From: Actinomycetes bacterium
GTDB lineage: Bacteria; Actinomycetota; Thermoleophilia; Solirubrobacterales; JACPNS01
DNA: 64,000 nucleotides
Direction: 5' to 3'
Assembly: GCA_023404495.1 (NCBI GenBank)
Contig: JAEYBE010000033.1
Coordinates: 72,032 to 136,031, forward strand
This document shows, one piece after another, positions 8,684 to 62,922 of the stretch. Every line of letters begins with the position of its first letter. The first letter of the stretch is position 1. The translations under genes were made by a program, and so were the position numbers. Below the pieces are notes generated by a model. That model made no database searches. It was given only the letters and a program-made list of their open reading frames with translations, and had not been told where the DNA came from.

Positions 8684-8710
8684 AGACGGCATACGATACC
8701 GGCGATCGCG

Positions 8711-22118: not shown

Positions 22119-23567
<1,449 letters not shown>

Positions 23568-23603: not shown

Positions 23604-24002
23604 TTATTTGGTGCTGTGAATTGCGTCTAGAAGTTGTTGGTGCTTTTGCTGCTCGAACGAGAGCCAGTCGCCGGCCGGAACTTCTTCCGGCTTCTCGGCG
23701 GTCTGATCGAGCCAGTCGTTCACTGCTCTGTCGACTTCTGGCTCATCGCGCAGTCGTTGCATGAATCCAACGTCTGCGATCTCGAGCTGTTTGCCTTTGA
23801 GCAGTTCGCGCAGCGTGCGAAGCCGCTGCAGCTCGCCCGGGCCATAGAGCCGGTAGCCCCCACCGGAACGCGGTGGAACGACCAGCCCAACACTCTCGAT
23901 GTAGCGCAGCATGCGCGGCGACCAACCGGTGGTCTCGGCAGCTTCGTTGATCGTGAGGGCGTCGGACGGGACGACTGGGGTTTCGGTGGCCGGGGAAGCC
24001 AT
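23604..24002 (-). CDS. MerR family transcriptional regulator
   Basis: HTH LTINEAAETTGWSPRMLRYIESVGLV...GGYRLYGPGELQRL. Its stop is only 36 nt upstream of the ahcY start. Confidence 0.85.
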   Translation of the reverse strand: MASPATETPVVPSDALTINEAAETTGWSPRMLRYIESVGLVVPPRSGGGYRLYGPGELQRLRTLRELLKGKQLEIADVGFMQRLRDEPEVDRAVNDWLDQTAEKPEEVPAGDWLSFEQQKHQQLLDAIHSTK

Positions 24003-30483: not shown

Positions 30484-31623
30484 CTAGCCGTCCTTCGCGC
30501 TTCCCGCGCGCTCGCTCGGTCGTCCAGCGGCCCGGCGCGAGAGCTCGGCATGGACGAACCCGTCGAGGTCGCCGTCGAGCACACGTTGAACATCGCCCAT
30601 CTCGAAGTTCGTGCGATGGTCCTTGACCATCGAGTACGGATGCAGCACGTAACTGCGAATCTGCGAACCGAAGTTGACGTCGATCGCCTCGCCCTTTTCG
30701 GCGGCCAGCTCGGCAGCCCGCTTCTCCTCTTCGAGCGCGACGATCCGCGCCCGGAGCATCTTCATCGCCGTGTTCTTGTTTGCGCCCTGCGAGCGCTCGT
30801 CCTGGCACTGAACGACGATGCCGGTCGGCCGATGCGTGATGCGCACGGCGCTATCGGTCTTGTTGACGTGCTGGCCGCCCGCACCGGAGGCGCGGTAGGT
30901 GTCGATCTGCAGGTCTGATTCGTCGATCTCGACGTCGAGGTCGTCATCAACCAGCGGGGCGACTTCAACTCCTGCGAATGATGTCTGCCGGCGATGTGCC
31001 GAGTCGAACGGGCTGAGGCGCACGAGGCGGTGGACGCCACGTTCGGCGGCGAAGAGGCCATACGCGTTCTCGCCGTGCACGAGAAACGTGGCCCGGGTGA
31101 TCCCGGCTTCCTGTCCGGCGTTGACTTCCTTGAGCTCGACCTTGAAGCCGCGCCCTTCGGCCCAGCGAGTCATCATCCGCAGCACCATCTCCGCCCAGTC
31201 CTGGGCGTCGGTACCGCCGGCGCCATCCTGGATCGTCACCACGGCGTCCCCTGCGTCGTACTCGCCGGAGAAGAGTCGCTCCTCCTCGAGCACCGCCATG
31301 CGCTTCTCTAGGTCGGCGAGTTGCTCTTCGAGCTCGTCGGCCATCGACTCGTCTTCTGCTGCCATCTCGGCGAGCGCGGTGAGATCCTCGACTTCGGAGG
31401 AGACGGCGTCGAACTCTTCAACCTTGCGATTGGCGCGCGAGTACTCGGCGTTGATCTTGGCCGCCTTCTCTTGGTCGTCCCAGAATCCCTCGGCACCCAT
31501 CTCAGACTCCAGCGCTTCGACGCGGGCGACCAGCGTAGGCCGGTCCAGCGCATCGGCCAACAGCTTCAGCTGACCCTGAACCGCGGAAATGCGTTGTTGG
31601 AGTTCGTGCTCGTCGAGTGCCAT
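30484..31623 (-). CDS. prfB: peptide chain release factor 2
   Basis: SPF tripeptide (RLSPFDS) and GGQ (SGAGGQHVNKT). It reads uninterrupted from ATG 31623 (MALDEHELQQ), so there is no +1 frameshift site. Confidence 0.93.
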   Translation of the reverse strand: MALDEHELQQRISAVQGQLKLLADALDRPTLVARVEALESEMGAEGFWDDQEKAAKINAEYSRANRKVEEFDAVSSEVEDLTALAEMAAEDESMADELEEQLADLEKRMAVLEEERLFSGEYDAGDAVVTIQDGAGGTDAQDWAEMVLRMMTRWAEGRGFKVELKEVNAGQEAGITRATFLVHGENAYGLFAAERGVHRLVRLSPFDSAHRRQTSFAGVEVAPLVDDDLDVEIDESDLQIDTYRASGAGGQHVNKTDSAVRITHRPTGIVVQCQDERSQGANKNTAMKMLRARIVALEEEKRAAELAAEKGEAIDVNFGSQIRSYVLHPYSMVKDHRTNFEMGDVQRVLDGDLDGFVHAELSRRAAGRPSERAGSAKDG

Positions 31624-31674
31624 TCGCAGGGCAAGGCTATCGGCGTCGTCCTCGCGGGCGCATAGTCTTGCCCG

Positions 31675-32385
31675 ATGGGAACAGACGTTCGCAGCGCACC
31701 GACTCGCATCGCCGCCGTCAGCGTCGGCGTACTGTGGGGTCGCAAGCACCGCGACCGGCGCCCGGAACAACTGCCGGTGACCGAAATCGGCGTCGCGATC
31801 TTCGACCGCTCGGGCGCAGAGATCTCTCTGGAAGAGCGGTCGGTGCTCTCCGGCTCGCAGCTCACCGACGCGCCGGAGCGCTTGCTCGCGCTGGAGCTCC
31901 CGCTCGTCGGATACAACGCGCTGCGCTTTGACTGGGTGGCACTCGACGCCCTGTCTGGGGCGGGCCGATTGATCGCGCACACGATCGACATCTACTCGGC
32001 GCTCTATCCATGCGTTTCGGAGATTGTCGACGCGGAGGGCGTCTCGGCCTTCCCCGTGAACGGCGAGTACGGCGTACTCCACCCCCACCGTGTCGCCGAG
32101 ACGAATCTCGGGTATCTGCCCGGCGGCGGAGAGGATCCAGTCGGCGAAGCTGAGCTTGCGGCCGAGCTCTGGCACCACCTGCTGACCAACGAGCGCGCTG
32201 TGCTGGCGGGTCGCACGCTTCCGCTGGAGGCCGAACAACTCGAGGTTCTGCGCGGCGCGCAACCGGCGATCGGCGATGAGTCCCACTGGCGCGCGATGCT
32301 TGCCAAGCGTCCGGAACCCACGCCGTTTCGCAGGCGTACTCGCCATCCGGTCACATTTCCGCGCGTAGACCAGCGCTACGTGTGA
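31675..32385 (+). CDS. hypothetical protein, possibly a degenerate RNase H-like/DEDD exonuclease fold
   Basis: 236-aa ORF with high GC3 in this frame (17/20 in a sampled stretch, against 12/20 for the antisense frame). LVGYNALRFDWVAL resembles the Exo II motif of YprB/PolB-exo-like proteins. There is no clear DxE motif and the start is uncertain. Confidence 0.45.
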   Translation: MGTDVRSAPTRIAAVSVGVLWGRKHRDRRPEQLPVTEIGVAIFDRSGAEISLEERSVLSGSQLTDAPERLLALELPLVGYNALRFDWVALDALSGAGRLIAHTIDIYSALYPCVSEIVDAEGVSAFPVNGEYGVLHPHRVAETNLGYLPGGGEDPVGEAELAAELWHHLLTNERAVLAGRTLPLEAEQLEVLRGAQPAIGDESHWRAMLAKRPEPTPFRRRTRHPVTFPRVDQRYV

Positions 32386-32431
32386 CATTCGTAGCGCTTT
32401 TATTGCGCTTGTAGCGCTTTATTAGCGCTAC
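32372..32431 (+). promoter_or_regulatory. candidate VapB operator array (four AGCGCTAC/GTAGCGCT boxes)
   Basis: AGCGCTAC at 32372, GTAGCGCT at 32391 and 32411, and AGCGCTAC at 32424. A 20-bp tandem unit GTAGCGCTTT(T)ATT.GCGCT. also occurs. The array sits directly upstream of vapB. Confidence 0.45.
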
Positions 32432-32700: not shown

Positions 32701-33093
32701 TTGATCGTCGTCGACTCGTCCCTCCTGGTGAACGCTTTCGGCGGAGCCGGTCCGCTGGCGGCGAGTGCTCGGGCCGCGCTGTTCTCCGAAGAGCCGGCAG
32801 CACCCTTTCATGTCGACATCGAGACGCTGTCAGCATGGCGACGCCAGGTCAGGACTGGATCGATTCCGCTAGCGTGGATCGAAGAAGCCCGCAACGACCT
32901 TCGAGACGCTCCGATTCTGCGCATTCCCCATGAACCGCTCCTCGATCGAATCTGGGAGCTCCGCGAGAATGTCACGCCGGCCGACGGGGCATACGTCGCG
33001 ATGGCGGAAGAGCTGGGCGTTCGATTGGTCACCTGCGACGCGCGACTGACGCGCGCCCCAGGCACCCGCTGCGAGTTCGAACTGATCGAGTAG
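32701..33093 (+). CDS. vapC: PIN-domain ribonuclease toxin
   Basis: 130 aa with a TTG start. It has the N-terminal IVVDSS acidic motif and later conserved acidic residues (ADGAYVAMAEE, TCDARL). Confidence 0.8.
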   Translation: MIVVDSSLLVNAFGGAGPLAASARAALFSEEPAAPFHVDIETLSAWRRQVRTGSIPLAWIEEARNDLRDAPILRIPHEPLLDRIWELRENVTPADGAYVAMAEELGVRLVTCDARLTRAPGTRCEFELIE

Positions 33094-33101
33094 CCGTAAA
33101 G

Positions 33102-35969
<2,868 letters not shown>

Positions 35970-36013
35970 AGGGGCTTACTTTACCCCTGAAGCGCGCCGC
36001 TCCTGCCTGTCGG

Positions 36014-36379
36014 TCAGGCGGTCAGGCCCGGCGGCTGCGCACCCATCGCCTTTGCGGTGCTGCGCTGGGCGGTGCGCCGCGCGCGGCGCTTGGCGGCCAG
36101 CTTGTCGACCTGACGGGCGAGCTCGTCGGACACCTCGTGCATGGCGTGCTTGAGATCGAATGAGCGGTCAGAGGCGCGCAGCGTCTTGCCCTTCACGTGC
36201 AGCGTCGCATCGACGCTGAAGTGATCCGGAATCGCCGGGTTGTGGTCGTCCTTGAACTCAAGCTCCAACCGCGCGAGGTCGGAGACCATCTTGTCGACCT
36301 TCTCGAAGCGGCGCGCCGCGTACGCGCGCAGTTCTTCGGTGATTGCGATCCCGTTGCGTGACCTGATCTCAATCTGCAT
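36014..36379 (-). CDS. hpf: ribosome hibernation promoting factor / RaiA family (short form)
   Basis: MQIEIRSRNGIAITEELRAYAARRFEKV... fits the S30AE family and the gene has the conserved position next to secA. ATG 36379 was chosen inside the ORF that extends to 36436. Confidence 0.8.
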   Translation of the reverse strand: MQIEIRSRNGIAITEELRAYAARRFEKVDKMVSDLARLELEFKDDHNPAIPDHFSVDATLHVKGKTLRASDRSFDLKHAMHEVSDELARQVDKLAAKRRARRTAQRSTAKAMGAQPPGLTA

Positions 36380-36531
36380 GTCCAACCAACTCCCAATCTC
36401 GTGTTGCAATGACTTCGGAAGCTGAACGGACTGCACTCGCGCGACGCCTGACCGACCGGCTGCGGAGCTGCGGCGCTGGGGGGCGCCGCCGTCCGGTCAG
36501 ACTTGCCGGGGCGGTGGCTCCACCCTCGCCC

Positions 36532-37242
36532 TCACGCGACCGCGAACGCGACTGCGCGAAGCGGCCCTCGGCCGGCCTCGGGCTGTCGTTCTCGAATCGC
36601 CTGAGTGCATACCTCCAATGTAATGCCTGTGGTGGCTACGTCGTCGCACACAACAACGTTCGTCGGCAGCGGCCCTAAAGGGTCCAGTCCCGAGTGCCGA
36701 AGCGCGCGCCGGTCCAGCGCGATGGAGGTGGCGGGAAAGGCCAGTCGCTCGCGGCGGTCCAGTTGCGATTGTGGCGGTCGCGAACCGTCTCGGACGAGCC
36801 ACTCCGCCGCACGGGCACCGGTGATAGCGGCGATCTCGCGGGCGAGCAAGAGCGACTGGTTGTAGCCACGGGCCCGCCGCCTGGCCGGATGAGCGGGCAC
36901 GGCGATTATCCAGTCCGCATCGCAGAGCCAGTCGCCGACGCGCCCGACCATGAGCTCGGCCATCTCAGCGGCGAGCGCCACCGCGCCGGCGAATTTCAGC
37001 GACCCGACGAGCGTCCGGGCCGTGCCCTCGTAGGCAAAGGCCGCCGCGACGCCGTTGCGCCGAGTCGGGCGGGGTGACCGCGCCAACGCGCTCCGGCACA
37101 CGGCGCAGATCCAACGATCGACTTCGGTCGGCCTGCCGCATCCCGAACAGCGCGGAGGTGCGATCAAGGCAGAGAGTCTTTGGATCGCGGGCGGGCTCAC
37201 GAGGGGATGATCCCGTCCGACGTGTGACGCTTCAAGACACAA
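36532..37242 (-). CDS. comF: ComF family phosphoribosyltransferase-like protein
   Basis: N-terminal Cys cluster CSGCGRP...CAVCRSAL and C-terminal PRTase loop VVVCDDVATTGITL, with hpf-comF synteny. The start is uncertain. Confidence 0.75.
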   Translation of the reverse strand: MCLEASHVGRDHPLVSPPAIQRLSALIAPPRCSGCGRPTEVDRWICAVCRSALARSPRPTRRNGVAAAFAYEGTARTLVGSLKFAGAVALAAEMAELMVGRVGDWLCDADWIIAVPAHPARRRARGYNQSLLLAREIAAITGARAAEWLVRDGSRPPQSQLDRRERLAFPATSIALDRRALRHSGLDPLGPLPTNVVVCDDVATTGITLEVCTQAIRERQPEAGRGPLRAVAFAVA

Positions 37243-37259: not shown

Positions 37260-37559
37260 ATGAGCCGCGAAGAAATCGTCACAGCGACCGGGATCGTGAT
37301 GTTCTTCTGGGACTCCGGCGACGAGGAGCGGCATCTGCTCGTCAACATCGAGCCGGATGATCACCACAAGCCCGACGCGTTCGAGCTGACCGGTGACCTA
37401 CGCGACTCGGCGATCGAGAAGATCGCCGAAGGCGCGCGCGTCGAGGTCGACTATCTGGTCGAACACCACGAGGTCGTCGATCCGGACGGCGCGACGACAC
37501 TCGACTCGAGCCGGCCGAACATCGTCGAGGTTCGGATCGACCTGACTAGCGGAGCTTGA
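37260..37559 (+). CDS. hypothetical small acidic protein
   Basis: 99 aa from ATG 37260 inside the longer ORF 37074..37559. No motif is recognised. It converges on and overlaps the zincin gene by 14 nt. Confidence 0.4.
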   Translation: MSREEIVTATGIVMFFWDSGDEERHLLVNIEPDDHHKPDAFELTGDLRDSAIEKIAEGARVEVDYLVEHHEVVDPDGATTLDSSRPNIVEVRIDLTSGA

Positions 37560-38598
37560 TTTCGACCTTCGCGACGCCGGTCTTGCCCTTGGCGAAAATT
37601 CCGATGTCCCAAAGCCCTGGCGCGATGAACGTCGTCAGCGAATCACTGCGGCCGCGCTTGGTCGAGCGGTCCCAGACCTTGTTGGACTTCGCGGGGAAGA
37701 TGAAGATGTCGAAGTCGCGCCCCTTGGCGCCCTTGACGGTCACCTTGGTGAGACTGAAGAACGACGTGGAGATGCGCTTCCAATAGACCTTCTTGCGCTT
37801 GATCTTCTTCGAGAAGTTCTTGGTCGAGACAAGCAACTTGTTGTCAATGTCGAACTTCATCGCCTTGAGCTGGTCGGCGTTGGGCTCCTTGGCGCTTGAA
37901 AGCTGCCAACCGGTGATGCCGTTGAGCACGACGAAGTCTTCGGCGAAGAGCTCGGGGAGCAGGTGCTCCCAGTCCGTGCCGGAGCAGAAGAACCTGTCCG
38001 CGTCCGTCGTGTTGGAGGCGGTCACACGGGTGAAGAACCAATCGCGCGTGCCGTCGGTCGAGATCGTGCAGCCGTTGCCGAAGCCGAACGCACGAAGCTG
38101 GGCGAGATTCGCGATCTGGTTGTCGACGTGGTGGCCGTACTCGTGGACCAGCGAGTGCAGCCAGTCAGTGTCGTTGGTGCCAAACCAAAGTTCGCCATAT
38201 CCGTTGGCCATCGGTCGATAGCAAGCGATCGCCTGCGTGTCGCCGCATGTCGAGTCCATCTCGCTGAGCGGGATCGCGTGGACCGTGAGCTTCGAGATCT
38301 CGGACTTGTGGTAAATCGAGTTCAGCGCGGCGGCGGCCGGATCAAGATCAAAGCCGGGGACGGTCGTATCAATCGTGAACTGACGACCTGAGCCGTCGGT
38401 GTAGGTCGCGCTGGCGACTGCCTTTGGAGCGGCCGCAATGCGCGCTCCCGCAGGCAGAATCGCATCCTTGACCTCGCGCTTGGCCTCGACCTTCGTGAGG
38501 TCGATCTTGCCGGCGGGCTCGGCGGCGGTTGCCGGCGGCGCGACGAACGCCGCCGCGCAGAGCGCGGCGGCGAATGTCAGGCCAGGCTTCAGGCGCAA
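37546..38598 (-). CDS. secreted putative zinc metalloprotease (HExxH) with a basic beta-sandwich (PPC-like) C-terminus
   Basis: 350 aa with a TTG start and the signal peptide MRLKPGLTFAAALCAAAFVAPPATAAEP. It carries the zincin motif LVHEYGHHV and a C-terminal KKIKRKKVYWKR...FDIFIFPAK...GVAKVEIKL. GC is low (42% in the sample 37801..37860). Confidence 0.65.
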   Translation of the reverse strand: MRLKPGLTFAAALCAAAFVAPPATAAEPAGKIDLTKVEAKREVKDAILPAGARIAAAPKAVASATYTDGSGRQFTIDTTVPGFDLDPAAAALNSIYHKSEISKLTVHAIPLSEMDSTCGDTQAIACYRPMANGYGELWFGTNDTDWLHSLVHEYGHHVDNQIANLAQLRAFGFGNGCTISTDGTRDWFFTRVTASNTTDADRFFCSGTDWEHLLPELFAEDFVVLNGITGWQLSSAKEPNADQLKAMKFDIDNKLLVSTKNFSKKIKRKKVYWKRISTSFFSLTKVTVKGAKGRDFDIFIFPAKSNKVWDRSTKRGRSDSLTTFIAPGLWDIGIFAKGKTGVAKVEIKLR

Positions 38599-39092
38599 GG
38601 AGGCACCCCGTTGGCGATCAGCTCTTCGTCTGTTGCGAGATTGAATGAGAACTGATCGGAGTTCTTCAGCAGGGCGCCGGTCGTCGGTGAGCGGAATGTT
38701 CCCTTGATCTTGAAGTACACCGTCGTACCGGAGGCAGCGGTGATCGACTTCGAGGTCTTCTTCCAGCCGTTCTTCTTTGTGAGCTTCACCGATCCGGAGG
38801 CGAAAGAAACTCCGTTCTGGTCGCGCACCGAGTAGCTGAACTTGACGCTCTTTGGGTACGGCGAGTTCTTGCGCGTGAACTTCGCACCGAACTTGACGGC
38901 GAAGCGCACTTGCCCGGCGGCGGGCCTGCAGGCGTCGACGAACTTGTAGGTCGGGGTGACGTAGAGCTTGACGGTCTTCGCCGAAGCAGCTGAGGCAACC
39001 GAGAGGCTGGCTGCGATCGCCACGACGAGTGTGGCCAGGAGGATCAGTTTCTTGCGCACGAGTGAGCCTTTCACGAGAAGGTGTTCACTCAA
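38589..39092 (-). CDS. small secreted protein, paralog B (Cys-bracketed)
   Basis: 167 aa with a signal peptide ending ASAASA. It resembles the 39136 gene product (LTKKNGWKKTSKSITAASG vs LKKSTGYKKRSKRFTVPAG, and LATDEELIANGVPPCA vs LAPTREELDQLGVVYC). Its stop overlaps the zincin start by 10 nt. Confidence 0.6.
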   Translation of the reverse strand: MSEHLLVKGSLVRKKLILLATLVVAIAASLSVASAASAKTVKLYVTPTYKFVDACRPAAGQVRFAVKFGAKFTRKNSPYPKSVKFSYSVRDQNGVSFASGSVKLTKKNGWKKTSKSITAASGTTVYFKIKGTFRSPTTGALLKNSDQFSFNLATDEELIANGVPPCA

Positions 39093-39135
39093 TTATCGCC
39101 TACGGCGCGCGAAAGTTGCGGTCGCGTCCAGCTGA

Positions 39136-39582
39136 CTAGCAATAAACCACGCCGAGCTGGTCGAGTTCTTCTCGAGTCGGTGCCAGGTCGGTGGACGATT
39201 TACCGAATTGGCGCGTTCGGCCGCCCACGCGGTATGTGAAGTTGACTCGCATCGAATACTCGTGGCCAGCCGGGACCGTGAAGCGCTTGGACCGCTTCTT
39301 GTAGCCGGTCGATTTCTTCAGGTTGATGACGCGAGAGGCGATCGTCCATCCAGTCGTCTTGTCGATGATCTGGTACGCGGCCCGGATCCGCTTGGGCGGC
39401 GCAATTCCGTTGTAATCCACTTTCCCATCAGCGACGAAGCGGTAGCTGATGCGGTCCTCGTCGACCCTGCAGCCGTCGACCTCGCCGTACTGCACGAATA
39501 CTTTGATCGACCAGGCCTGCGCAGCGGGCACAGGCGCCAGCAGGACTGCGAGCGAAGCGAGCAAAACAATTTTCTTGAGCAC
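39136..39582 (-). CDS. small secreted protein, paralog A (Cys-bracketed)
   Basis: 148 aa with the signal peptide MLKKIVLLASLAVLLAPVPAAQA. One Cys lies near the mature N-terminus and one is the last residue. Confidence 0.6.
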   Translation of the reverse strand: MLKKIVLLASLAVLLAPVPAAQAWSIKVFVQYGEVDGCRVDEDRISYRFVADGKVDYNGIAPPKRIRAAYQIIDKTTGWTIASRVINLKKSTGYKKRSKRFTVPAGHEYSMRVNFTYRVGGRTRQFGKSSTDLAPTREELDQLGVVYC

Positions 39583-39649: not shown

Positions 39650-40666
39650 TCACTCGCCGGGCGGGCGCAGACTTGCGGCGATGTCACCGCGGCCGAGGAT
39701 CGCCCCGATCGCCATCGCGTCGGCCGGGACCTCTCCGCCCGGGAAAACAATCGTGTCGCGCAGCGCCGAGCCTGCGCCGATCTTCGCGCCGTCCCCGATC
39801 ACCACTGGGCCCTGAAGAATCGCGCCGGCACCGATCGAGACGTCCTGTCCGATCCAGACAGGCCCTTCCACAAGCTCTGCGGCATCGAGCGCGCCGCTGG
39901 TCGCCGAAAACACCGCGTCGCTGCCGCCGGTGCCCTCGATGCCAAGGTCCAGCGCCCCCGTGAGCGCGTCAAAGGTTCCCTCCCGGAGCTCGCGCAGCGA
40001 GCCCACGTCGTTCCAGTATTCCTCGATCTCGTGGATATGAAAGGGAATGTCGTTTTCGAGCAGCACTGGGAAGACGTCCTGCGCCCAGTCGACAAATTCG
40101 GTCTCGGGGAAGTAGTCGAAGATCTCCGGGCTAAAGACGTAGATCCCGCAATTGCCGAGATCCGAGAGCGCCTCGTCGGGTTCCGGCTTCTCCTGGAAGC
40201 CGGTGATCCGCCCCTCGGCGTCGTGCAACACGACTCCGTACTCACGGGTGTCGGCCACCCGCTTGACGGTCAACGTCGCGACGCCGCCCGCGCTCTTGTG
40301 GCGCTCGATCAGCTTCGTCAAGTCGATGTCGGTGAGCGCGTCGCCGCTGATGATCAGGAACGGCTCGCCGCCGTCGGTCAATGAGTCCTTCACCGCACGC
40401 ACGCCGCCGGCCGTGCCCATCAGTTCCGGCTCGAAGTTGTATTCGAGGTTCACGCCAAAAGCAGACCCGTCGCCAAAGTAATTGCGAATCGTGGCTGGGT
40501 AGTAGTGGAGGTTTGCAACGGCGTCGGTGAATCCGTGCTTTGCGACCAGATTCAGCAGGTGCGCCATGCACGGCTTGTCGATCACCGGCACCATCGGCTT
40601 CGGGATCCCCAGGGTGATCGGCTTGAGACGAGTTCCGAGTCCTGCGGCGAGAACCATCGCTTTCAT
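39650..40666 (-). CDS. NDP-sugar pyrophosphorylase (mannose-1-phosphate guanylyltransferase-like) with a left-handed beta-helix C-terminus
   Basis: MKAMVLAAGLGTRLKPITLGIPKPMVPV is the signature G-x-G-T-R-L motif. ISGDALTD and a C-terminal hexapeptide-repeat region are also present. ATG 40666 was chosen. Confidence 0.8.
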   Translation of the reverse strand: MKAMVLAAGLGTRLKPITLGIPKPMVPVIDKPCMAHLLNLVAKHGFTDAVANLHYYPATIRNYFGDGSAFGVNLEYNFEPELMGTAGGVRAVKDSLTDGGEPFLIISGDALTDIDLTKLIERHKSAGGVATLTVKRVADTREYGVVLHDAEGRITGFQEKPEPDEALSDLGNCGIYVFSPEIFDYFPETEFVDWAQDVFPVLLENDIPFHIHEIEEYWNDVGSLRELREGTFDALTGALDLGIEGTGGSDAVFSATSGALDAAELVEGPVWIGQDVSIGAGAILQGPVVIGDGAKIGAGSALRDTIVFPGGEVPADAMAIGAILGRGDIAASLRPPGE

Positions 40667-40671
40667 CTGAT

Positions 40672-41967
40672 TCAGCTTCCTTTCGAGTGGTCGGGCGGCG
40701 GCGCTGCGGCCGACTGATCCCATGAAGTCAGGTACTGCTGCTGCTCTGCGGTGAGCGTGTCGATCTCGACGCGCAGCGATTCGAGCTTGAGGCGGGCGAT
40801 CGCATCGTCGATCTCCGGCGGGACGGCGTGCACTTGACGCGCCATCGCCTTGCCGTGTCTTGCCAGATGTTCGACCGCCAGCGCCTGATTGGCGAAACTC
40901 ATGTCCATCACGGCCGGTGGATGACCCTCGCCAGCAGCGAGGTTGACGAGCCGCCCGTCGGCGAGAAGGTATACGCGGCGGTCACCCGAGAGTGTGAAGC
41001 GTTCGACGAGCGGGCGCACTTCGGCATGTTCCTGGGCGCGTTCGAATAAATCCGCCTTGTTTATCTCGATGTCAAAGTGACCTGCGTTGCAGACGATCGT
41101 CCCGTCGCCCATCACGTCGAAGAGCTCGCCGGCCACGGCGTCGCGTCCTCCGGTGACCGTGACGATCACGTCCGCGCGCGAGGCCGCTTCGATCGCAGGA
41201 AGCACGGTGAAGCCATCCATCGCGGCCTCAAGCGCGCGCTGGGGATCGACCTCGCAGACGATCACGTTGGCGCCGAGGCCCTTGGCGCGAGAGGCGATTC
41301 CCTGTCCGCAGGCGCCATAGCCGATCACTGCGACCACGCGACCGGCAATCAACAAGTTCGTCGCGCGCAGGATTCCGTCGAGCGTCGACTGGCCGGTGCC
41401 GTAGCGCGTGTCAAACAGCTTCTGTGTGCGCGACTCGTTGACGGCGATCACTGGATACGCGAGGCCGCCTTCGCGCTCAAGCGCCTTCAGGCGGATCACG
41501 CCGGTCGTTGTCTCCTCGGTGCCACCAAGCACGTCGTCCAGCAGTTCGCGGCGCCCGCCGTGAAGCGCCCCGACGAGATCTGCCCCGTCGTCGAGCGTGA
41601 TCTGCGGCGCGGTGTCGCAGACGGCATTGATGTGACGCTGATAGGCCGGGGCATCTTCGCCATTGACCGCGAAGACGGCCGCTGAATCGCGCTCCGAAAG
41701 CGCTGCGGCGACATCATCCTGGGTTGAAAGGGGATTGCTCGCGCAGATCGCAAGCTGCGCGCCGCCGGCGATCAGCGCCCGGGCGAGATTCGCGGTCTCC
41801 GCCGTGATGTGCAAACAGGCGCCGACGCGGATGCCGTCCAGTGGACGTTGCTCGGAGAATCGCTCAGCGATACGCGAGAGCACCGGCATTTCATTGCCGG
41901 CCCAGTCGATACGCATCGCGCCGGCATCGGCGAGCGCGAAGTCAGCGATGTCAGCTGCCGGGGTCAT
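40672..41967 (-). CDS. adenosylhomocysteinase-family paralog (short form without insertion or C-terminal tail)
   Basis: 431 aa. Motifs ACLHITAETANLARAL, TLDDGADLVG, GYGACGQGIA, AGHFDIEINK and DGRLVNLAAGEGHPPAVMDMSF. Confidence 0.85.
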   Translation of the reverse strand: MTPAADIADFALADAGAMRIDWAGNEMPVLSRIAERFSEQRPLDGIRVGACLHITAETANLARALIAGGAQLAICASNPLSTQDDVAAALSERDSAAVFAVNGEDAPAYQRHINAVCDTAPQITLDDGADLVGALHGGRRELLDDVLGGTEETTTGVIRLKALEREGGLAYPVIAVNESRTQKLFDTRYGTGQSTLDGILRATNLLIAGRVVAVIGYGACGQGIASRAKGLGANVIVCEVDPQRALEAAMDGFTVLPAIEAASRADVIVTVTGGRDAVAGELFDVMGDGTIVCNAGHFDIEINKADLFERAQEHAEVRPLVERFTLSGDRRVYLLADGRLVNLAAGEGHPPAVMDMSFANQALAVEHLARHGKAMARQVHAVPPEIDDAIARLKLESLRVEIDTLTAEQQQYLTSWDQSAAAPPPDHSKGS

Positions 41968-41980
41968 TCAAACCTGCGGC

Positions 41981-43042
41981 TCAACCGGCGCTCGTCGGAC
42001 GCCCGAGCTGGTCTTTGAGATCTTCGATCAGCGGAACCGGCGTCGGGTCGACGCCGCGCAGCACCGCCAGGTACAGCGAAGTCAGGTCGCCCAGCAGGAC
42101 GTGCGCGAACATTCGCTCAGAACGAGTCTCTCCCGAGACTTCAATCGTCTGCGCCTGCGCGCGATGCGCGCTTGCGATCTCGGAGACAACTCGAATCCGT
42201 TCGGCGATTCGCGGGTGCTGGTCTCTGTCGGCGAGAAACCAGGCCGTGTTCTCGGCCAGCTCCGTCGCCCCTTCCCAGCCACAGATCTCATTGTGGTTGG
42301 CCTCTGGGAGCGACGCGCTCCATGCCGGGTACTTCGCGTTCTCGTTTATCTGGCACTTCCACCGATACGCCACCGGGACCGTCAGATCGGCCCCGTAGAT
42401 GATCGGCAGCCGGCCGAAGGCGCTGCGCGCCAGGTGCATCGCCGTCTCGTCCTCGCCGCCCGGTGCCCAGCTGGAGCCAAGCGTTTTGAGCAGCTCGGCC
42501 GCCGCGTTGAACTCATCATGGATCGCTGCGGGCGCGAGTCCGTTGGCGATCGCGATCTCCGCCACGGCGACCACGCCATATGCGACGGCAGCGCGCGGCT
42601 GAAAGATCCCGGGAAGTCCGATCACGGGGATGCCGGAGGCGTGTGCGGCCTCCGAGAGCGGGCCACCCGAGCTGACCACATAGAGGCGGGCGCCAGAAGC
42701 CTTTGCCTGCTCGAAACAGGAGAGAGTCTCTTCTGTCGAGCCCGAGTAGGAGCTCAATACAACCGCGTCATCTTCGCCAACCCAGGAGGGGAGCGCGTAG
42801 CCGCGTGCGGTGACCAGCGGCCCACCCGCTCGCGGTCCGATCAGCGTCGCGGCGAGATCCGCCCCGATTGCAGAACCCCCCATCCCGCAGACAACCATCG
42901 CGCGGGCCTTGGCGGGCTGAAGAAATGCGCTCTCCGCGCGCCACATCGCGTCGGTGATGTGGTCCGGCATCGCGAGCATGTCGGCGAGCAGCCCCGAACT
43001 GTCCACGGCAGCGACTGCCTCAGCTGTCAAAGCGTCGTTCAC
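41981..43042 (-). CDS. SIS-domain bifunctional phosphoglucose/phosphomannose isomerase-like protein
   Basis: SIS motifs VCGMGGSAIGADL and LSSYSGSTEETL, with a second SIS-like half. It overlaps the upstream gene by 4 nt. Confidence 0.75.
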   Translation of the reverse strand: MNDALTAEAVAAVDSSGLLADMLAMPDHITDAMWRAESAFLQPAKARAMVVCGMGGSAIGADLAATLIGPRAGGPLVTARGYALPSWVGEDDAVVLSSYSGSTEETLSCFEQAKASGARLYVVSSGGPLSEAAHASGIPVIGLPGIFQPRAAVAYGVVAVAEIAIANGLAPAAIHDEFNAAAELLKTLGSSWAPGGEDETAMHLARSAFGRLPIIYGADLTVPVAYRWKCQINENAKYPAWSASLPEANHNEICGWEGATELAENTAWFLADRDQHPRIAERIRVVSEIASAHRAQAQTIEVSGETRSERMFAHVLLGDLTSLYLAVLRGVDPTPVPLIEDLKDQLGRPTSAG

Positions 43043-44127
43043 GAAGCGATGCCCTCCCCCGCCTCAATTCGCGCCGCCCCGACGACCGCGCCCGGATCGA
43101 TCGACGCACCTTCGCCGATCACGCTTCCGTCGGTGATGTTCGCTCCGTAGCCCAGCAAGACAGATGGCCCCACTATCGAGTCTTCCACCGCGGCGCCGGG
43201 CGCGAGTCGCGCGTCGTCCATCACAACGGATCGCTCGATGCGGCAGTCGGCCGCCACGTCGACGCGCTCGCCGACAACGGTGTCCGGTCCGATACGGCTG
43301 CCCGGCGCGAACTCAGCGCCGGCGCCGACCACGACAGGTGCGGTCACTTCGACGCCGGCAAGATCCACGTCGCTGGCGAAGACATTGCCCTGGGCGTCGC
43401 GCAGCGGGTCAAGGTACGAGCGCACGCGCCCGCTGAGCAGGTCACGCGTGGCTTCGACGTAGCGTTCGGGCGTACCGAGATCGAGCCAGTATCCGTCGGC
43501 GTCGTACGCGTAGATGCCATCGCCGACCAGTTGCGGGAATACGTCGTGCTCGAACGAGCGGTTCTCGCCGGCGGGGATCATCTCCAGCACGTCGCGCTCG
43601 AGCACATAGGCCCCGGCGTTGATTCGCGGGTCCGCGGGCGCGTCCTCGCGACGCGGCTTCTCAAGAAACGCCTCGACGCGGTGCTCGCTGTCGGTCAGCA
43701 CCACGCCGTATGCGGTCGGATCCTCCACGGGCACCAGGGCGAGCGTCGCCCGGGCGCCGGTCGCCTGATGCTGAGCGATTTCAGCGGAGAGGTCGTAGTC
43801 GGCCAGCGTGTCGCCATTCAGAACCAGGAATCGCTCCTCGAGCCGGTCCTCCGCGAACTTCACAGCACCGGCGGTGCCCAACGGCTCGGGCTCCTCGACG
43901 TAGGTGATCGAAACACCAGGATGGCCGGCCGCGTCGAGCGCACTGCGCAGGCCGTCGGCCTTGTAGCCGACCGACATCACCACATCGGTCACGCCGTGCC
44001 CGTGCAGCCAATCGATCATGTACCAGAGCATCGGCCGATTGACCATCGGCACAGCCGGCTTTGGCATCGTGCTGGTCAGCGGACGCAGGCGCGTGCCCTG
44101 GCCGCCGGACAGGATCACGGCTTGCAC
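43039..44127 (-). CDS. NDP-sugar pyrophosphorylase (mannose-1-phosphate guanylyltransferase-like)
   Basis: MQAVILSGGQGTRLRPLTSTMPKPAVPM, EPEPLGTAGA, LNGDTLAD and a C-terminal hexapeptide-repeat region. Confidence 0.8.
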   Translation of the reverse strand: MQAVILSGGQGTRLRPLTSTMPKPAVPMVNRPMLWYMIDWLHGHGVTDVVMSVGYKADGLRSALDAAGHPGVSITYVEEPEPLGTAGAVKFAEDRLEERFLVLNGDTLADYDLSAEIAQHQATGARATLALVPVEDPTAYGVVLTDSEHRVEAFLEKPRREDAPADPRINAGAYVLERDVLEMIPAGENRSFEHDVFPQLVGDGIYAYDADGYWLDLGTPERYVEATRDLLSGRVRSYLDPLRDAQGNVFASDVDLAGVEVTAPVVVGAGAEFAPGSRIGPDTVVGERVDVAADCRIERSVVMDDARLAPGAAVEDSIVGPSVLLGYGANITDGSVIGEGASIDPGAVVGAARIEAGEGIAS

Positions 44128-44135
44128 GGTTGGGC

Positions 44136-45503
44136 CTACTCCGCGGCGGCGCTGGCGACGGCGGGCGCCTCTTGCTCGCTGAGCAATCCCGTGGCCGGGC
44201 GGCCGACGCCCTCGTAGGCAAACCCGGCAGCGGCGACGGCGTCGCCATCGAGCAGGTTGCGCCCGTCGATCACCAGTGGCGTGCGCATCGCTGCGCGCAC
44301 CTGATCGAGATCGAGCTCAGCGAACTGCGGCCACTCGGTGACGATTACAGCGGCGTCCGCGCCTTCGAGGGCAGCCAGCGGTGAGTCTTCGATCTCAACC
44401 CCCGGAAGCAGCTCGGCCGCGCGTCCGGCTGCGACCGGATCGAACGCGCTGACGATCGCTCCCTCGCCGCGCAGGCGCGCCGAGAGCACGAGCGAGGAGG
44501 CCTCGCGCATGTCGTCGGTGTTGGGCTTGAAGGAGAGACCAAGCAGCGCGATCTTCTTGCCGACGAGTGAGTCGCCGAGGTGCTTCTTGAGCTTCCCGAT
44601 CACGCGACGCTTCTGAAGTTCGTTGACCTCGATCACTGCGTTCAGGAGCTGGAAGTGGTAGCCGGAGTTGCCGGCGAGCTGCTTGAGCGCGGTGACGTCC
44701 TTCGGGAAGCAGCTCCCGCCATAGCCGATTCCGGCCTGCAGGAACTTCGGCCCGATGCGGGCGTCGAGGCCCATGCCGCGGGCGACCTCGGTGACGTCGG
44801 CGCCGACCTCTTCGGAGACGTTGGCGATCTCGTTGATGAAGCTGATCTTGGTCGCAAGAAAAGCGTTGCTGGCGAGCTTGATCATCTCGGCCGAGGCAAT
44901 GTCGGTGCGAACAATCTCACCGCCGAGCGGCTTGTAGATCGCCTCAACGGCGTCGCCGGCCCATGTTCCTGGCAACTCAGTGCCGATGTCGGAGCCGATC
45001 ACGACGCGGTCGGGATTCATGAAGTCGTCGACCGCCGTGCCCTCCTTGAGGAACTCCGGGCAGGAGACGTAGGCGAGGTCGTGCTTGTCGCGGCGGATCG
45101 CGGCGCCAGTACCGACGGGCACTGTGCTCTTCATGATCAGCGCGTGCTCGTTGGAATCGCCGACCTCGCGGACCACGGTCTGGACGCGCGAGAGGTCGGC
45201 GTCGCCGGAGTAGGTCGGCGGCGTGTCGACGCAGACGAACATCAAGCGGGTGCGATCGAGCACCTCGCCCATGTCCGTCGTGAAGGTCATGTGGTCGATG
45301 TTCTTCTTGAGCAGCTCGGGCAGTCCCGGCTCGTGGATCAGCAGCTCGCCGCGGCTGAGCGCGTCGACCTTTTCCTGGACGATCTCACGCACGACCACCT
45401 CGTGGCCGAGCTCGGCGAAGCAGCAGGCGGTCACAAGACCGACCCAGCCGGCGCCGATCACGCCGATCGGCGGCTTTTCGCTGGTTTCAAGCACGTTTGT
45501 CAT
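44136..45503 (-). CDS. ugd: UDP-glucose 6-dehydrogenase family protein
   Basis: N-terminal Rossmann motif GVIGAGWVGLVTA, catalytic GGSCFPKD, and a C-terminal UDP-binding domain. Confidence 0.9.
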   Translation of the reverse strand: MTNVLETSEKPPIGVIGAGWVGLVTACCFAELGHEVVVREIVQEKVDALSRGELLIHEPGLPELLKKNIDHMTFTTDMGEVLDRTRLMFVCVDTPPTYSGDADLSRVQTVVREVGDSNEHALIMKSTVPVGTGAAIRRDKHDLAYVSCPEFLKEGTAVDDFMNPDRVVIGSDIGTELPGTWAGDAVEAIYKPLGGEIVRTDIASAEMIKLASNAFLATKISFINEIANVSEEVGADVTEVARGMGLDARIGPKFLQAGIGYGGSCFPKDVTALKQLAGNSGYHFQLLNAVIEVNELQKRRVIGKLKKHLGDSLVGKKIALLGLSFKPNTDDMREASSLVLSARLRGEGAIVSAFDPVAAGRAAELLPGVEIEDSPLAALEGADAAVIVTEWPQFAELDLDQVRAAMRTPLVIDGRNLLDGDAVAAAGFAYEGVGRPATGLLSEQEAPAVASAAAE

Positions 45504-45543: not shown

Positions 45544-47040
45544 TCAGTTGTACAGGCGCAGCGACTCGGCGAGCGCCATCATCTGCTTGCCATTGAGCTT
45601 GCGCGAGAGAGTGTTTGCGACCCAATAGGACGCATCACCGCGGTGGAAGGCGACAAGCGCGAGCTTGCTGCCTTCGTAGTAGAGCTTGTATTCGCGTCCG
45701 CCGACTCTGCGCGTGACCGACGGGTTCTTGAGAATTGGCGGGTCCTTCCAGTTGACGCCCTGCACGCCGTAGTAGTCGCCCGCGGAGCCCGACAGCTTGG
45801 CCACGATGCGGTACGCCGAGACGCGCTTGCCGTCGGCGGTGGTCATGCGGTAGTCGCGCGTGCTCTGGTCTTGATAGCTCGCGCCATTGACCAGCGCAGT
45901 CGGGTAGAAGACAGGCAGGTTGATGCGGCCGGAGGCCAGCGAGGCCTGCTTGCGTCCGGCCATCTTTGCCGGCGTCATTGAGCCCGGCAGGGACTTTGAT
46001 CGCTTTGCCTTTGTCGACTGCGGTTTGGCGGTCTCGCCATCGCCGCCGGCGTCCGCGTCAGAGGACACCGTGCCGCGCTGCTTTGGCCCCTTGATGAACG
46101 ATCGGGCGGCCTTCTTGATCGCCTCGTTTGAGGCGACCACATAAGAGACGCCCCCGATCGTCGGCGTGGTCACTCCGGGGATCTCGACTTGGTAGACCGG
46201 CTTGCCCGATGATTTGACCGCGAGCGTGAGCATGCGCTGGAGGTTTTTGCCGCTGGAGAGGCTGTTGTCGGTGTGGATGTTGCTGGCGATGATCTTCTTC
46301 AGATCCTTCGCGCTGGTGAAGAGCTTGGTCACTCCGACTTGTTGCTTGGCCTGTCGCAAGAACCCCTGCTGGCGCGCCTCGCGGAAGATGTCGCTGTCGT
46401 AATGGCGGAAGCGCACGTAGTCGAGCGCGCGATAGCCGCAGAGCTTCTGGTAGCCGGCTTTGATGTCGATCGCAGCAAACTGCTCGCCGTAGACGCGCCC
46501 TACGTTGCTGTGGAAGTACTTGCGGTCGACGTCGATGTAGACGCAGTCGACTGCATCGACGGCCTTGGCGAATCCGCCGAAGTCGACCTCGGCGACGTGA
46601 TTGACCTTGAGCCCGAAATTCTCCTTGATCGTGCGCACCACCAGCTTTGGTCCGCCGAGCGAATAGGACTCGTTGAACTTGGTGACGCCTCGCCCGGGGA
46701 TCGACACGCGCAGGTCTCGCGGGATCGAGAGGACTGTCGTGACGTTCTTGTTCGGGTCGAGCCGGACGAGCATCATCGTGTCCGAACGCGCCTTGAGGCC
46801 CAGCCGCTTGTCGTCCTTGCGGGTGTCGGCGCCGATCAGAAGCAGGGTCTGCGGCCCGCCCGTGGCGCCATCGAGGTACTTGCTGATGCCCTTGATCTCA
46901 TTCTGCTTGAAGACCGTGGCGATGTCCTGGCGCTGGCTGAAGGCAGTCAGCGACGCGACGATCGCGGCGATCGCAATCATCAGCACCGAGCCGAAGAGAT
47001 AGCGCTTCCAGGGCGCAAAGCGTTCTGGTTCGTCAAACAC
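45544..47040 (-). CDS. LytR-CpsA-Psr (LCP) family cell-envelope glycopolymer transferase
   Basis: N-terminal TM helix, LLLIGADTR...RSDTMMLVRLDP...SIPRDL, and a C-terminal LytR_C-like domain. Confidence 0.85.
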   Translation of the reverse strand: MFDEPERFAPWKRYLFGSVLMIAIAAIVASLTAFSQRQDIATVFKQNEIKGISKYLDGATGGPQTLLLIGADTRKDDKRLGLKARSDTMMLVRLDPNKNVTTVLSIPRDLRVSIPGRGVTKFNESYSLGGPKLVVRTIKENFGLKVNHVAEVDFGGFAKAVDAVDCVYIDVDRKYFHSNVGRVYGEQFAAIDIKAGYQKLCGYRALDYVRFRHYDSDIFREARQQGFLRQAKQQVGVTKLFTSAKDLKKIIASNIHTDNSLSSGKNLQRMLTLAVKSSGKPVYQVEIPGVTTPTIGGVSYVVASNEAIKKAARSFIKGPKQRGTVSSDADAGGDGETAKPQSTKAKRSKSLPGSMTPAKMAGRKQASLASGRINLPVFYPTALVNGASYQDQSTRDYRMTTADGKRVSAYRIVAKLSGSAGDYYGVQGVNWKDPPILKNPSVTRRVGGREYKLYYEGSKLALVAFHRGDASYWVANTLSRKLNGKQMMALAESLRLYN

Positions 47041-61756: not shown

Positions 61757-62922
61757 TCGCGGTCGAGCGCCGGGAATTCACCGGTCGCGAGCTCCTCGGC
61801 GACCTCAGCATCGACCTCTTCCGGCGTCGTGCCGCTGCCGCGCCTGCGCAGTCTGCGCCCCCTGAACCGGCGCAACTTGAGGATCTCGAGCACCACCACG
61901 AGATAGAAGCTGGCAATCAGCACCAGCACGCCGACGCCGAGCAACACCAGCGTCCACCCCGTATCGAGGTTGCCGCGGCCGTCTGAGTAGGGGATGAACC
62001 TGAGCGCCAGCGCGAGCGTCGCAAGGCAGAGCGTCCAGGCGTAGAGATAGAGCACGGTTCTTCGCTGGGAGAAGCCGATATTGACGAAACGATGGTGGAA
62101 ATGCCATCGATCGGCTTGGTAGATCGGCTGGCCGTACTTGATTCGCTTAGCAACGACGAAGCCGGTGTCGAGGATCGGCACGGCGAGGATCACCAGTGGG
62201 AAAAAGAGCGCAACTGCGGCGGCCGTCTTGAGCACGCCTTGGATCGCGATGCACGCCAGCAGATACCCCAGGAGATTCGACCCGGCGTCGCCCATGAAGA
62301 TCGTCGCCGGGTAGAAGTTGTGGAAGAGGAAACCGAGCGATGCGCCGGCAGTACACGCCGCGAGGATCCCCGCCGAGTAGCGCTCGAGCGAGAGCGTGAT
62401 GATCGCGAAGGTCGCAGCGCCGATGAAGCACACGCCAGCCGCCAGGCCGTCGGCCCCGTCGGTGAGGTTGACGACGTTGATCACGGCGACGATCCCGAGC
62501 ATCGTCAGCGGCTCGGCCCAGACGCCGAGGTTGACCGGGTCGATGAACGGAAGCGTGAAGTGATCGACCACCACACCAGAGAAGACGGGGATCGCGGCGC
62601 CGCAGAATTGCCCGGCGAGCTTGACCAACGGCGGCAGATCGAAGATGTCGTCAAGCGTGCCGACCAGCGCAATCAGGAGCGCACCGGCGATGATGCCTTC
62701 GCTCTCCGTGCTGTCGGGCAGGAAGATCAGCGACGCCACCAGCAGGCCCGAGAGAATCGCAAGGCCACCGAGGCTCGGCATGTCGTGGTCGTGCAGCGAT
62801 CGATCGGAGACGTGCGCTACCGCCCCGACACGGAAGGCGAGCTTCGCCGCCAGCGGCGTGATGGCGAACGAGACGATCGCGGCGACCGCGAACGCGGTCA
62901 GGGCCTGTAGCTCAGGAGACAC
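61753..62922 (-). CDS. wecA: UDP-GlcNAc:undecaprenyl-phosphate GlcNAc-1-phosphate transferase (MraY/WecA family)
   Basis: Polytopic protein with GTLDDIFDLP, NLTDGADGLAAG, IFMGDAGSNLLG and a conserved position upstream of the atp operon in Actinobacteria. Confidence 0.88.
   Translation of the reverse strand: MSPELQALTAFAVAAIVSFAITPLAAKLAFRVGAVAHVSDRSLHDHDMPSLGGLAILSGLLVASLIFLPDSTESEGIIAGALLIALVGTLDDIFDLPPLVKLAGQFCGAAIPVFSGVVVDHFTLPFIDPVNLGVWAEPLTMLGIVAVINVVNLTDGADGLAAGVCFIGAATFAIITLSLERYSAGILAACTAGASLGFLFHNFYPATIFMGDAGSNLLGYLLACIAIQGVLKTAAAVALFFPLVILAVPILDTGFVVAKRIKYGQPIYQADRWHFHHRFVNIGFSQRRTVLYLYAWTLCLATLALALRFIPYSDGRGNLDTGWTLVLLGVGVLVLIASFYLVVVLEILKLRRFRGRRLRRRGSGTTPEEVDAEVAEELATGEFPALDRD

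Follow-up and report, generated by a model that had tools for sequence, protein, structure and literature searches.

S-adenosyl-L-homocysteine (SAH) hydrolase (SAHH, AhcY) is among the most conserved of enzymes, and the lysine of its active site is regarded as invariant. The current analysis concerns a homologue that has lost this lysine. It is encoded by the shorter of two ahcY genes in a 64,000-nucleotide stretch (hereafter the window, meaning the whole of the DNA analysed) of contig JAEYBE010000033.1, from a soil Actinomycetes bacterium of the class Thermoleophilia (Actinomycetota). The short copy (40672..41967, minus strand) encodes a 431-aa protein of the SAHH fold without Lys186 and Asn191, as seen from its open reading frame, family hidden Markov models (HMMs), structure matches and an AlphaFold2 model. 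The long copy (22119..23567, minus strand) encodes a canonical, actinobacterial-type enzyme of 482 aa with all catalytic residues, which is presumed to be the housekeeping enzyme. Residue numbers are those of human SAHH unless stated otherwise, the reference sequence being 100% identical to that of PDB entry 1li4.

The family to which both proteins belong is thoroughly known. In the canonical reaction, Lys186 hydrogen-bonds to the 3′-hydroxyl of the ribose and acts as the acid/base of the 3′-keto redox step, in which NAD+ oxidises C3′ and NADH re-reduces it (PMC4647836, PMC7765604). A short, or ‘archaeal-type’, subgroup has been described (PMC10978960). Its members from Synechocystis (7o5l/7o5m), Sulfolobus acidocaldarius (7r39) and Thermotoga maritima (3x2e) resemble the short copy in their full-length homology, their fold and the absence of an insertion and a C-terminal tail, and they share with it the HxTxE motif and other ribose, adenine and NAD contacts. 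Unlike them, however, the short copy lacks Lys186, Asn191 and Trp223 and coexists with a long-type SAHH. The S-inosyl-L-homocysteine (SIH) hydrolases (M. jannaschii MjSIHH, M. maripaludis 7r3a and P. furiosus 7r37) also have the short architecture and are about 50% identical to the short copy, but they carry HxExK together with Lys186, whereas the short copy carries HxTxE without it. The long type is represented by Rv3248c of M. tuberculosis (3ce6/2ziz), of the same family but with the insertion, the tail and an intact K186/D190/N191 triad; in Conexibacter and Baekduia a canonical long SAHH lies directly upstream of the short paralog.

The nearest functional parallel is eukaryotic. AHCYL1 (IRBIT) and AHCYL2 resemble SAHH but reportedly have no hydrolase activity, and AHCYL1 is reported to be a SAH sensor, as related in PMC13406329 (citing Huang et al. 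2022). Their likeness to the short copy is one of functional analogy only: in both cases a paralog stands beside a canonical SAHH, shares its fold and NAD domain, and probably acts by binding its ligand rather than turning it over. The coexistence is plain here, with a canonical long SAHH in the same window and same-contig pairs in relatives. The short copy is nevertheless of independent bacterial, short-type origin, and it lacks the N-terminal IRBIT extension, aligning to SAHH from residue 5. We found no description of a conserved, convergent Lys-less variant such as the one reported below, which is annotated everywhere as plain adenosylhomocysteinase, and a literature search for bacterial SAHH pseudoenzymes gave nothing usable.

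For comparison of the active sites, the short copy was aligned with human SAHH, the Synechocystis enzyme, 120 close homologues and 77 short-type sequences from other phyla, and was compared at 43 functionally annotated positions at first and at every alignment column later. Among 159 other short-type SAHHs from many phyla, the residue is the same in 98% or more of the sequences at 97 columns. The short copy agrees with them at 94 of these and departs at exactly three, through the replacements K186Q, N191T and W223A. Thus, the canonical motif N-[DE]-x-x-T-K-x-x-x-D-N reads N-E-S-R-T-Q-K-L-F-D-T. The codons of its TQKLFDT segment (T181-Q182-K183-L184-F185-D186-T187 in the protein’s own numbering) lie at 41407..41427 on the minus strand, and the ungapped alignment of the translation to 7o5l and 1li4 puts Gln182 at the site of Lys186 and Thr187 at the site of Asn191, the partner of Lys186. 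This segment is the most informative difference between the short copy and its relatives, and the sequence-only reading of the window had overlooked it. Both residues are found in 159/159 of the other short-type SAHHs and in 120/120 long-type homologues. Trp223 is only slightly less constant (156/159 of the other short-type enzymes); in the short copy, alignment places an alanine at its equivalent in the NAD glycine-rich loop, which reads GYGACGQG (41299..41322, minus strand) as opposed to GYGWCG[KR]G in the canonical short type.

The loss is shared by the closest relatives. In the clade of 42 sequences to which the short copy belongs, here called x-D-T after positions 186, 190 and 191, position 186 is Gln in 38, Pro in two, Gly in one and Ala in one, while Thr191 is present in all 42. 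Residue 187 varies among Arg, His, Lys and Ser. An alignment artefact at residue 186 was considered and rejected, as the HMMER and MAFFT alignments both give the segment from N181 to YGTGQS the same length, without gaps. Compensation by the adjacent Lys183 (the protein’s own numbering) was judged unlikely: the equivalent position 187 varies as just described, and in the model residues 180–203 form one helix on which residue 182 (equivalent to 186) and residue 186 (equivalent to 190) face the same way and Lys183 does not. Being one position further along the same helix, Lys183 would be expected to point away from the ribose.

What the loss of these residues means may be gauged from a mammalian enzyme. 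Takata et al. targeted Asp130, Lys185, Asp189 and Asn190 of rat SAHH in 2002, and the K185N and N190S mutants are reported to have each retained a kcat of about 0.5% of wild type or less. PDB entry 1xwf, among the structure matches, is the structure of the rat K185N mutant; a literature search gave nothing usable on the K185N and N190S data. With respect to the third position, PDB entry 9ifb (2026) is a C221W mutant of the Pyrococcus furiosus SAHH, which may correspond to the Trp223 position of the NAD loop, a match by numbering rather than by alignment. A literature search on this mutant found no paper; given the entry, others may be probing the Trp223-equivalent position.

Apart from these residues, the two pockets are well preserved. 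The short copy keeps H55, T57, E59, D131, E155/E156, T157–159, N181, D190, H301, F302, N346, H353, M358, F362, the GxGxxG loop and E243. These ribose, adenine, gate and NAD contacts are present in 42/42 members of the x-D-T clade, except for N181 (35/42) and for T158 and T159, at which serine replaces threonine in 2/42 and 3/42 members, respectively; the clade as a whole keeps 90/97 family-invariant columns. Both sites are therefore recognisable in the short copy, the NAD site by its GxGxxG loop, Glu243, Thr157–159 and Asn346 (with the short-type loop residue Trp223 lost), and the nucleoside site by His55, Thr57, Glu59, Asp131, Glu156, Thr157, Asp190, His301, His353, Met358 and Phe362. The nucleobase fingerprint, HITAET (41794..41811, minus strand, from the translation), is of the SAH/adenine type HxTxE and not HxExK, according to the published rule that HxExK marks SIH-preferring and HxTxE(Q) SAH-preferring enzymes (PMC10978960). 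The AlphaFold2 model, built with 54 homologues, has a mean predicted local distance difference test score of 92 and a predicted template-modelling (TM) score of 0.85. Foldseek superposes it on Synechocystis SAHH (7o5m) with TM 0.91–0.95, and across 7o5m, 7r37 and 7r39 the values are TM 0.91–0.95 and a root-mean-square deviation of 1.7–2.0 Å, consistent with the two-Rossmann-domain SAHH fold.

The gene is also under selection. Between the short copy and a 92%-identical orthologue (locus L004), the ratio of nonsynonymous to synonymous substitution rates (dN/dS) is 0.066, compared with 0.026–0.196 for neighbouring genes, which points to strong purifying selection. The short copy thus looks, from its sequence, to be a functional gene rather than one in decay.

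The distribution of the Lys-less proteins suggests that the change has happened repeatedly. A second clade emerged when the Baekduia soli short copy served as the query; it comprises 120 matches and the copy at the Baekduia soli locus itself, and its members include Conexibacter woesei, Baekduia alba and Baekduia soli. In this Conexibacter/Baekduia clade the motif is E186-R187...N190-D191 in 121/121 sequences, and the rest of both pockets is intact. W223 also tends to be lost in both Lys-less clades. In neighbour-joining trees (100 bootstraps, signature columns excluded), the x-D-T clade is monophyletic in 89/100 replicates, the E-N-D clade of Conexibacter and Baekduia in 100/100, and all Thermoleophilia short copies together in 100/100, while the two Lys-less clades never group with each other (0/100). 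This pattern indicates that one short copy was acquired or inherited by the lineage and that loss of the lysine followed on two or more independent occasions. A further sequence (P0052) has Thr186 and represents a possible third loss. The short copy evolves faster than its Lys-bearing orthologues; root-to-tip distances are 0.45 and 0.48 in the Lys-less clades, as against 0.36. The closest named genomes are metagenome-assembled genomes (MAGs) of Thermoleophilaceae and Solirubrobacterales (Thermoleophilia, Actinomycetota). A scan of genome contigs yielded four Thermoleophilia loci only, owing to the design of the pattern, and the wider taxon sampling comes from protein searches.

In a representative library clustered at 50% identity, K-D-N is found in 101 of the best 150 matches, the rest including the E-N-D group and a scattering of SAHH-like proteins that are far more degenerate. 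Degeneration among SAHH homologues is thus not confined to the x-D-T clade, although the literature searched had nothing on such proteins. Many of the library entries (P0361–P0510) are 35–50% identical to the query and have heavily degenerate pockets, for example with His55 changed to Pro or Lys186 to Arg, Ala, Ser or Val (P0385, P0388, P0402, P0404 and P0420). Divergent SAHH-fold families that await description appear, on these sequences, to be common in metagenomes.

The two copies in the window are members of different SAHH types. Both contain PF05221 and PF00670 and score above the adenosylhomocysteinase equivalog cut-offs of NCBIfam, the short copy reaching 575 bits with NF004005 (cut-off 275) and 562 bits with TIGR00936 (cut-off 497.6), and the long copy 622 bits with TIGR00936 (same cut-off). 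The best PDB sequence match of the short copy is 7o5l from Synechocystis (E=2.7e-145, aligned over residues 5–417), other top relatives being the short-type enzymes of Pyrococcus, Methanococcus, Sulfolobus and Thermotoga, and it is 53–60% identical to the short-type SAHHs of cyanobacteria, Chloroflexota and archaea. The long copy matches M. tuberculosis SAHH (3ce6/2ziz) best, end to end, with E=3.4e-221 and about 70% identity. Pairwise alignment gives 34% identity between the two copies and shows an insertion of about 40 aa and a C-terminal KPEHYRY tail in the long copy only; the short copy lacks both the insertion and the Lys426/Tyr430 tail, as expected of the short-type subgroup.

Much of this had been anticipated by the sequence-only reading. 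A 431-aa and a 482-aa AhcY, with the insertion and tail confined to the latter, agree with the open reading frames, HMM scores and alignment, and the motifs it picked out (HITAET, GYGACGQG, DDGAD, GHFDIEI and GRLVNL..GHP) are all found in the short copy. It had further regarded the NAD loop and DDGAD as departures from the canonical enzyme. For the loop this holds, since GYGACGQG contains W223A, but DDGAD had to be dropped as a distinguishing mark, as essentially all of the 120 closest short-type homologues carry it. The idea of a diverged substrate was half right: the paralog is anciently diverged and its active site is altered, but the change is in the redox machinery (Lys186, Asn191 and Trp223) and not in the nucleobase pocket. 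Neither of two scenarios that the reading had named as refuting it holds. A recent in-genome duplication is rejected by the 34% identity and the different SAHH types of the copies, and decay of the long copy into a pseudogene by its intact frame, complete catalytic residues and 85–97% identity in relatives.

The long copy accompanies the short one closely. Short and long partners could be assigned to the same contig by equal contig size in eight cases. Five of these involve x-D-T short copies: P0003/P0130 (contig of 66,703 bp), P0004/P0140 (629,467 bp), P0008/P0147 (926,069 bp), P0019/P0138 (899,502 bp) and P0034/P0148 (72,023 bp). One has the Thr186 copy (P0052/P0156, 53,701 bp), and in two the short copy is still canonical and has the lysine (P0053/P0160, 17,471 bp; P0055/P0152, 136,117 bp). 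Within these pairs, the long copies are 85–94% identical to that of the window and the short copies 68–82%. Every contig of sufficient length to reveal one carries an intact, far more conserved long copy, a statement that applies to contigs, not whole genomes. The GC content at third codon positions (GC3) is 0.93 for the long copy, the highest in the window, and 0.77 for the short copy.

A MerR-family regulator (23604..24002, minus strand; Pfam) lies 36 nt upstream of the long ahcY. MerR is directly upstream of the long copy in every Thermoleophilia locus seen (L084, 9621–10004; L087, 9552–9944; L088, 6103–6501), and the Conexibacter MerR gene extends 4 nt into the start of ahcY. Among the database proteins, two of 614 aa (P0186 and P0187) are either MerR–AdoHcyase fusions or run-on gene calls. 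This arrangement suggests that the canonical SAHH is under dedicated transcriptional control. In Baekduia soli and Conexibacter woesei, MerR, long ahcY and short ahcY are in tandem, with 39–58 nt between the ahcY genes, in what looks like one operon.

Taken together, we propose that the short copy is a paralog repurposed for ligand binding, its catalysis impaired or rewired, whose role depends on binding and which turns over little or no SAH; we put the probability of this at about 55%. It retains the SAH-hydrolase fold and the sites for NAD and for adenosine or SAH as the adenine nucleoside, having lost the Lys186/Asn191 pair that would abstract and return the 3′-hydroxyl proton in the NAD-dependent redox steps, and with its NAD loop remodelled by the change of Trp223 to Ala. 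Such a protein would bind an adenosine- or SAH-type ligand together with NAD(H), and its turnover of SAH would be very slow or nil. Candidate roles are the sensing or buffering of SAH or adenosine, or action with or on the canonical enzyme, and SAH hydrolysis for housekeeping would be left to the long copy at 22119..23567. That the hydrolase activity is lost or reduced we infer by analogy with the rat K185N and N190S mutants, and a sensor, buffer or regulatory role would follow by analogy with eukaryotic AHCYL1. On this view the long copy is the housekeeping SAH hydrolase, and the short copy, without its lysine, is probably no ordinary hydrolase.

Extended to the whole set of Thermoleophilia paralogs that lost Lys186/Asn191 at least twice with the pockets kept, the proposal is more tentative. 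Somewhat short of even odds, in our estimate, is that the class constitutes a counterpart of AHCYL/IRBIT (a SAH/adenosine sensor, buffer or regulatory partner) or performs a new nucleoside transformation. If so, the AHCYL pseudoenzymes of eukaryotes may have their first bacterial analogue in this class, which would also be a natural experiment in the conversion of a redox-cycling hydrolase into a binding protein or an enzyme of new chemistry. There is a practical side as well: pipelines call the Lys-less paralogs adenosylhomocysteinase, and methyl-cycle reconstructions for Thermoleophilia would consequently count one enzyme too many. Cultured hosts of Lys-less paralogs exist (Conexibacter woesei and Baekduia soli), making the question directly testable.

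Having proposed a binding role, we would note several points that weigh against it. A compensating base is conceivable, namely D190 in the x-D-T clade or E186 in the Conexibacter clade. The retention of D131, H55 and H301, which act at C4′/C5′, is more easily explained if some catalysis persists, and the annotation HMM scores are well above the equivalog cut-offs. The effects of the rat mutations, reportedly so severe, come from a mammalian enzyme with the long tail and not from a short type. The co-occurrence with a canonical SAHH was judged on contigs and not whole genomes, and the sensor, buffer or regulatory role draws on the AHCYL1 analogy alone.

Some of these points lend weight to readings in which the short copy is still an enzyme. 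It could be an ordinary second isozyme of the short, cation-independent type, co-expressed with housekeeping sugar genes and with the changes at Lys186 and Asn191 tolerated or compensated. The HMM cut-offs passed, the 53–57% identity to the active Synechocystis enzyme, the full set of other catalytic and binding residues and the strong purifying selection all fit this, as does the position of short-type ahcY beside metK in other phyla, where it is clearly a methyl-cycle enzyme. Against it stand the universal presence of Lys186 and Asn191 in the other short-type and long-type sequences (159/159 and 120/120) and the occurrence of Gln, Pro, Gly or Ala at position 186 within the clade, which implies that no side chain is required there. 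The basic residue next to it varies and sits one position along the helix, mutation of the same two residues reportedly cripples the rat enzyme, and the companion long copy, with its top-ranking GC3, evolves far more slowly. We regard the isozyme as unlikely, if worth serious consideration. Alternatively, the protein may be active with rewired chemistry or another nucleoside substrate, such as a ligand with a changed 3′ position on the ribose, or a dehydrogenase-type reaction with dissociable NAD, the carboxylate of D190 or E186 or some other group standing in for the lysine. In favour of this, the new residues have in turn been held constant (T191, 42/42; E186/R187/N190/D191, 120/120 second-clade matches), positions 186, 191 and 223 have been remodelled convergently, the C4′/C5′ catalytic residues D131, H55 and H301 remain, and loss of the bulky tryptophan of the NAD loop could alter how the cofactor is held. 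However, residue 186 is unfixed in the x-D-T clade, the unchanged HxTxE, H301-F302, H353, M358 and F362 give no indication of a new ligand, and no new neighbour gene appeared when the lysine was lost, to judge from locus L086 and the window. Rewired chemistry is accordingly the more doubtful of these two enzymatic readings.

The remaining alternatives are effectively excluded. The sequence-only reading had suggested that the paralog might be dedicated to removing the SAH formed in methylation of a glycan made by the surrounding operon. The operon-like spacing of 13 and 5 nt and the LCP and Ugd genes upstream would fit, but the idea is very unlikely, in view of the same synteny around Lys-bearing orthologues (and of the long copy’s place within the Conexibacter/Baekduia block), and of the negative result of a search for methyltransferase domains, none of which turned up in the annotated genes of the 64-kb window. 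Moreover, a protein without Lys186 seems ill suited to the dedicated removal of SAH. Specificity for SIH, as in methanogens and Thermotoga, is even less probable. It was raised by the short ‘archaeal’ type, and the SIH-preferring PfuSAHH and MmaSAHH are indeed among the best structural matches; it is contradicted by the fingerprint, which is HxTxE in the short copy and in 42/42 clade members, and by the observation that 14/14 HxExK sequences in the comparison set keep K186, which the short copy lacks. The annotated genes of the window showed no SAH deaminase of the DadD/MtaD type, though no search was aimed at one. Least credible is that the short copy is a pseudogene, decaying because the long copy has made it dispensable. 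Lost catalytic residues and faster evolution than the long copy would be expected of one, but open reading frames are intact in 42 + 121 sequences down to about 70% identity, 90/97 invariant columns are kept in the clade, and the dN/dS of 0.066 together with these 163 intact homologues led us to reject it.

The neighbourhood of the short copy is that of sugar-nucleotide metabolism, with all genes on the minus strand and assigned with Pfam and NCBIfam. Upstream is a SIS-domain gene resembling bifunctional phosphoglucose/phosphomannose isomerases (PGI/PMI; 41981..43042), and downstream a ManC-like NDP-sugar pyrophosphorylase below the equivalog cut-off (39650..40666). Further upstream follow a second ManC-like pyrophosphorylase with an LbH domain (43039..44127), a UDP-glucose 6-dehydrogenase family gene (Ugd; 44136..45503) and a LytR-CpsA-Psr (LCP) glycopolymer transferase (45544..47040). 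These neighbours, and the spacings, are exactly as first read: 13 nt separate the PGI/PMI stop (41981) from the short ahcY ATG (41967), and 5 nt the short ahcY stop (40672) from the ATG of the pyrophosphorylase (40666); AAAGGAAG forms a Shine-Dalgarno-like sequence within the final codons of the short ahcY. The downstream end of the syntenic block is formed by a ComF-like phosphoribosyltransferase, HPF and SecA (33102..37242, minus strand; same order in L004, L006, L084, L085, L086 and L088).

This context is tempting to over-read. The order LCP–Ugd–ManC-like–SIS PGI/PMI–[short ahcY]–NDP-sugar pyrophosphorylase–...–ComF–HPF–SecA–PrfB recurs in every Thermoleophilia locus examined (L004–L007, L084, L085, L086 and L088), including three in which the short copy is still canonical and Lys-bearing (L086, L085 and L007). 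One MAG (L086/L087), with a K-D-N short copy, reproduces the layout of the window down to MerR–long ahcY about 18 kb away, past SecA–PrfB–NadC–NadA. In Conexibacter and Baekduia the long copy, too, sits inside the same ManC–PGI/PMI...ComF–HPF–SecA block. Since Lys-bearing orthologues share the synteny, the neighbourhood is older than the loss of the lysine and was unchanged by it. The sugar-nucleotide neighbourhood is inherited Thermoleophilia synteny; it is no evidence for glycan methylation and no functional clue. Presumably, the long sahH of Mycobacterium and Streptomyces occupies a comparable secA...sahH...manA/SIS/pmm...manC...LCP region; a literature search on the mycobacterial sahH-manA-pmmA order gave nothing relevant. 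No Rfam family reached its gathering score anywhere in the window, and hence there was no match to a SAH or SAM riboswitch.

Linkage of this kind extends to other phyla. In MAGs of Krumholzibacteriia, Planctomycetia and Omnitrophota, a Lys186-bearing short ahcY lies in a PtsI–SIS PGI/PMI–NTP-transferase–metK–ahcY–PFK (–FBA) cluster (L010, 4861–11248; L014, 31–5266; L049, 3084–11849). Well beyond Actinomycetota, ahcY is thus again linked with PGI/PMI-like and nucleotidyltransferase genes. The place of these canonical short-type genes beside metK is consistent with a housekeeping methyl-cycle role.

A few other features of the window were observed. Between the downstream pyrophosphorylase and comF are three genes in a row whose N-termini resemble signal peptides and which match no Pfam family (37546..39582, minus strand); the content of this slot varies in L006, L085 and L086. 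The RF2-like (PCRF/RF-1) reading frame at 30484..32388 (minus strand) is 634 aa long, as opposed to 333–381 aa in L084, L085 and L087, and may have an N-terminal extension, or be an unrecognised programmed frameshift or a fusion artefact. A PIN/FitA-like ribbon-helix-helix toxin–antitoxin pair (32701..33093, plus strand, and adjacent) is inserted between secA and prfB, and close to the end of the window is a gene for a nucleotidyltransferase toxin of the AbiEii type (62912..63760, minus strand). At 6588..7886 (minus strand) is a fusion protein of MerR helix-turn-helix, adenylate-cyclase-regulatory and cyclase parts. Finally, a DeoD-like gene of the purine nucleoside phosphorylase family, below equivalog cut-offs (8645..9472, plus strand), and a phosphoribosyltransferase gene (50..580, minus strand) could handle the adenosine or adenine freed from SAH.

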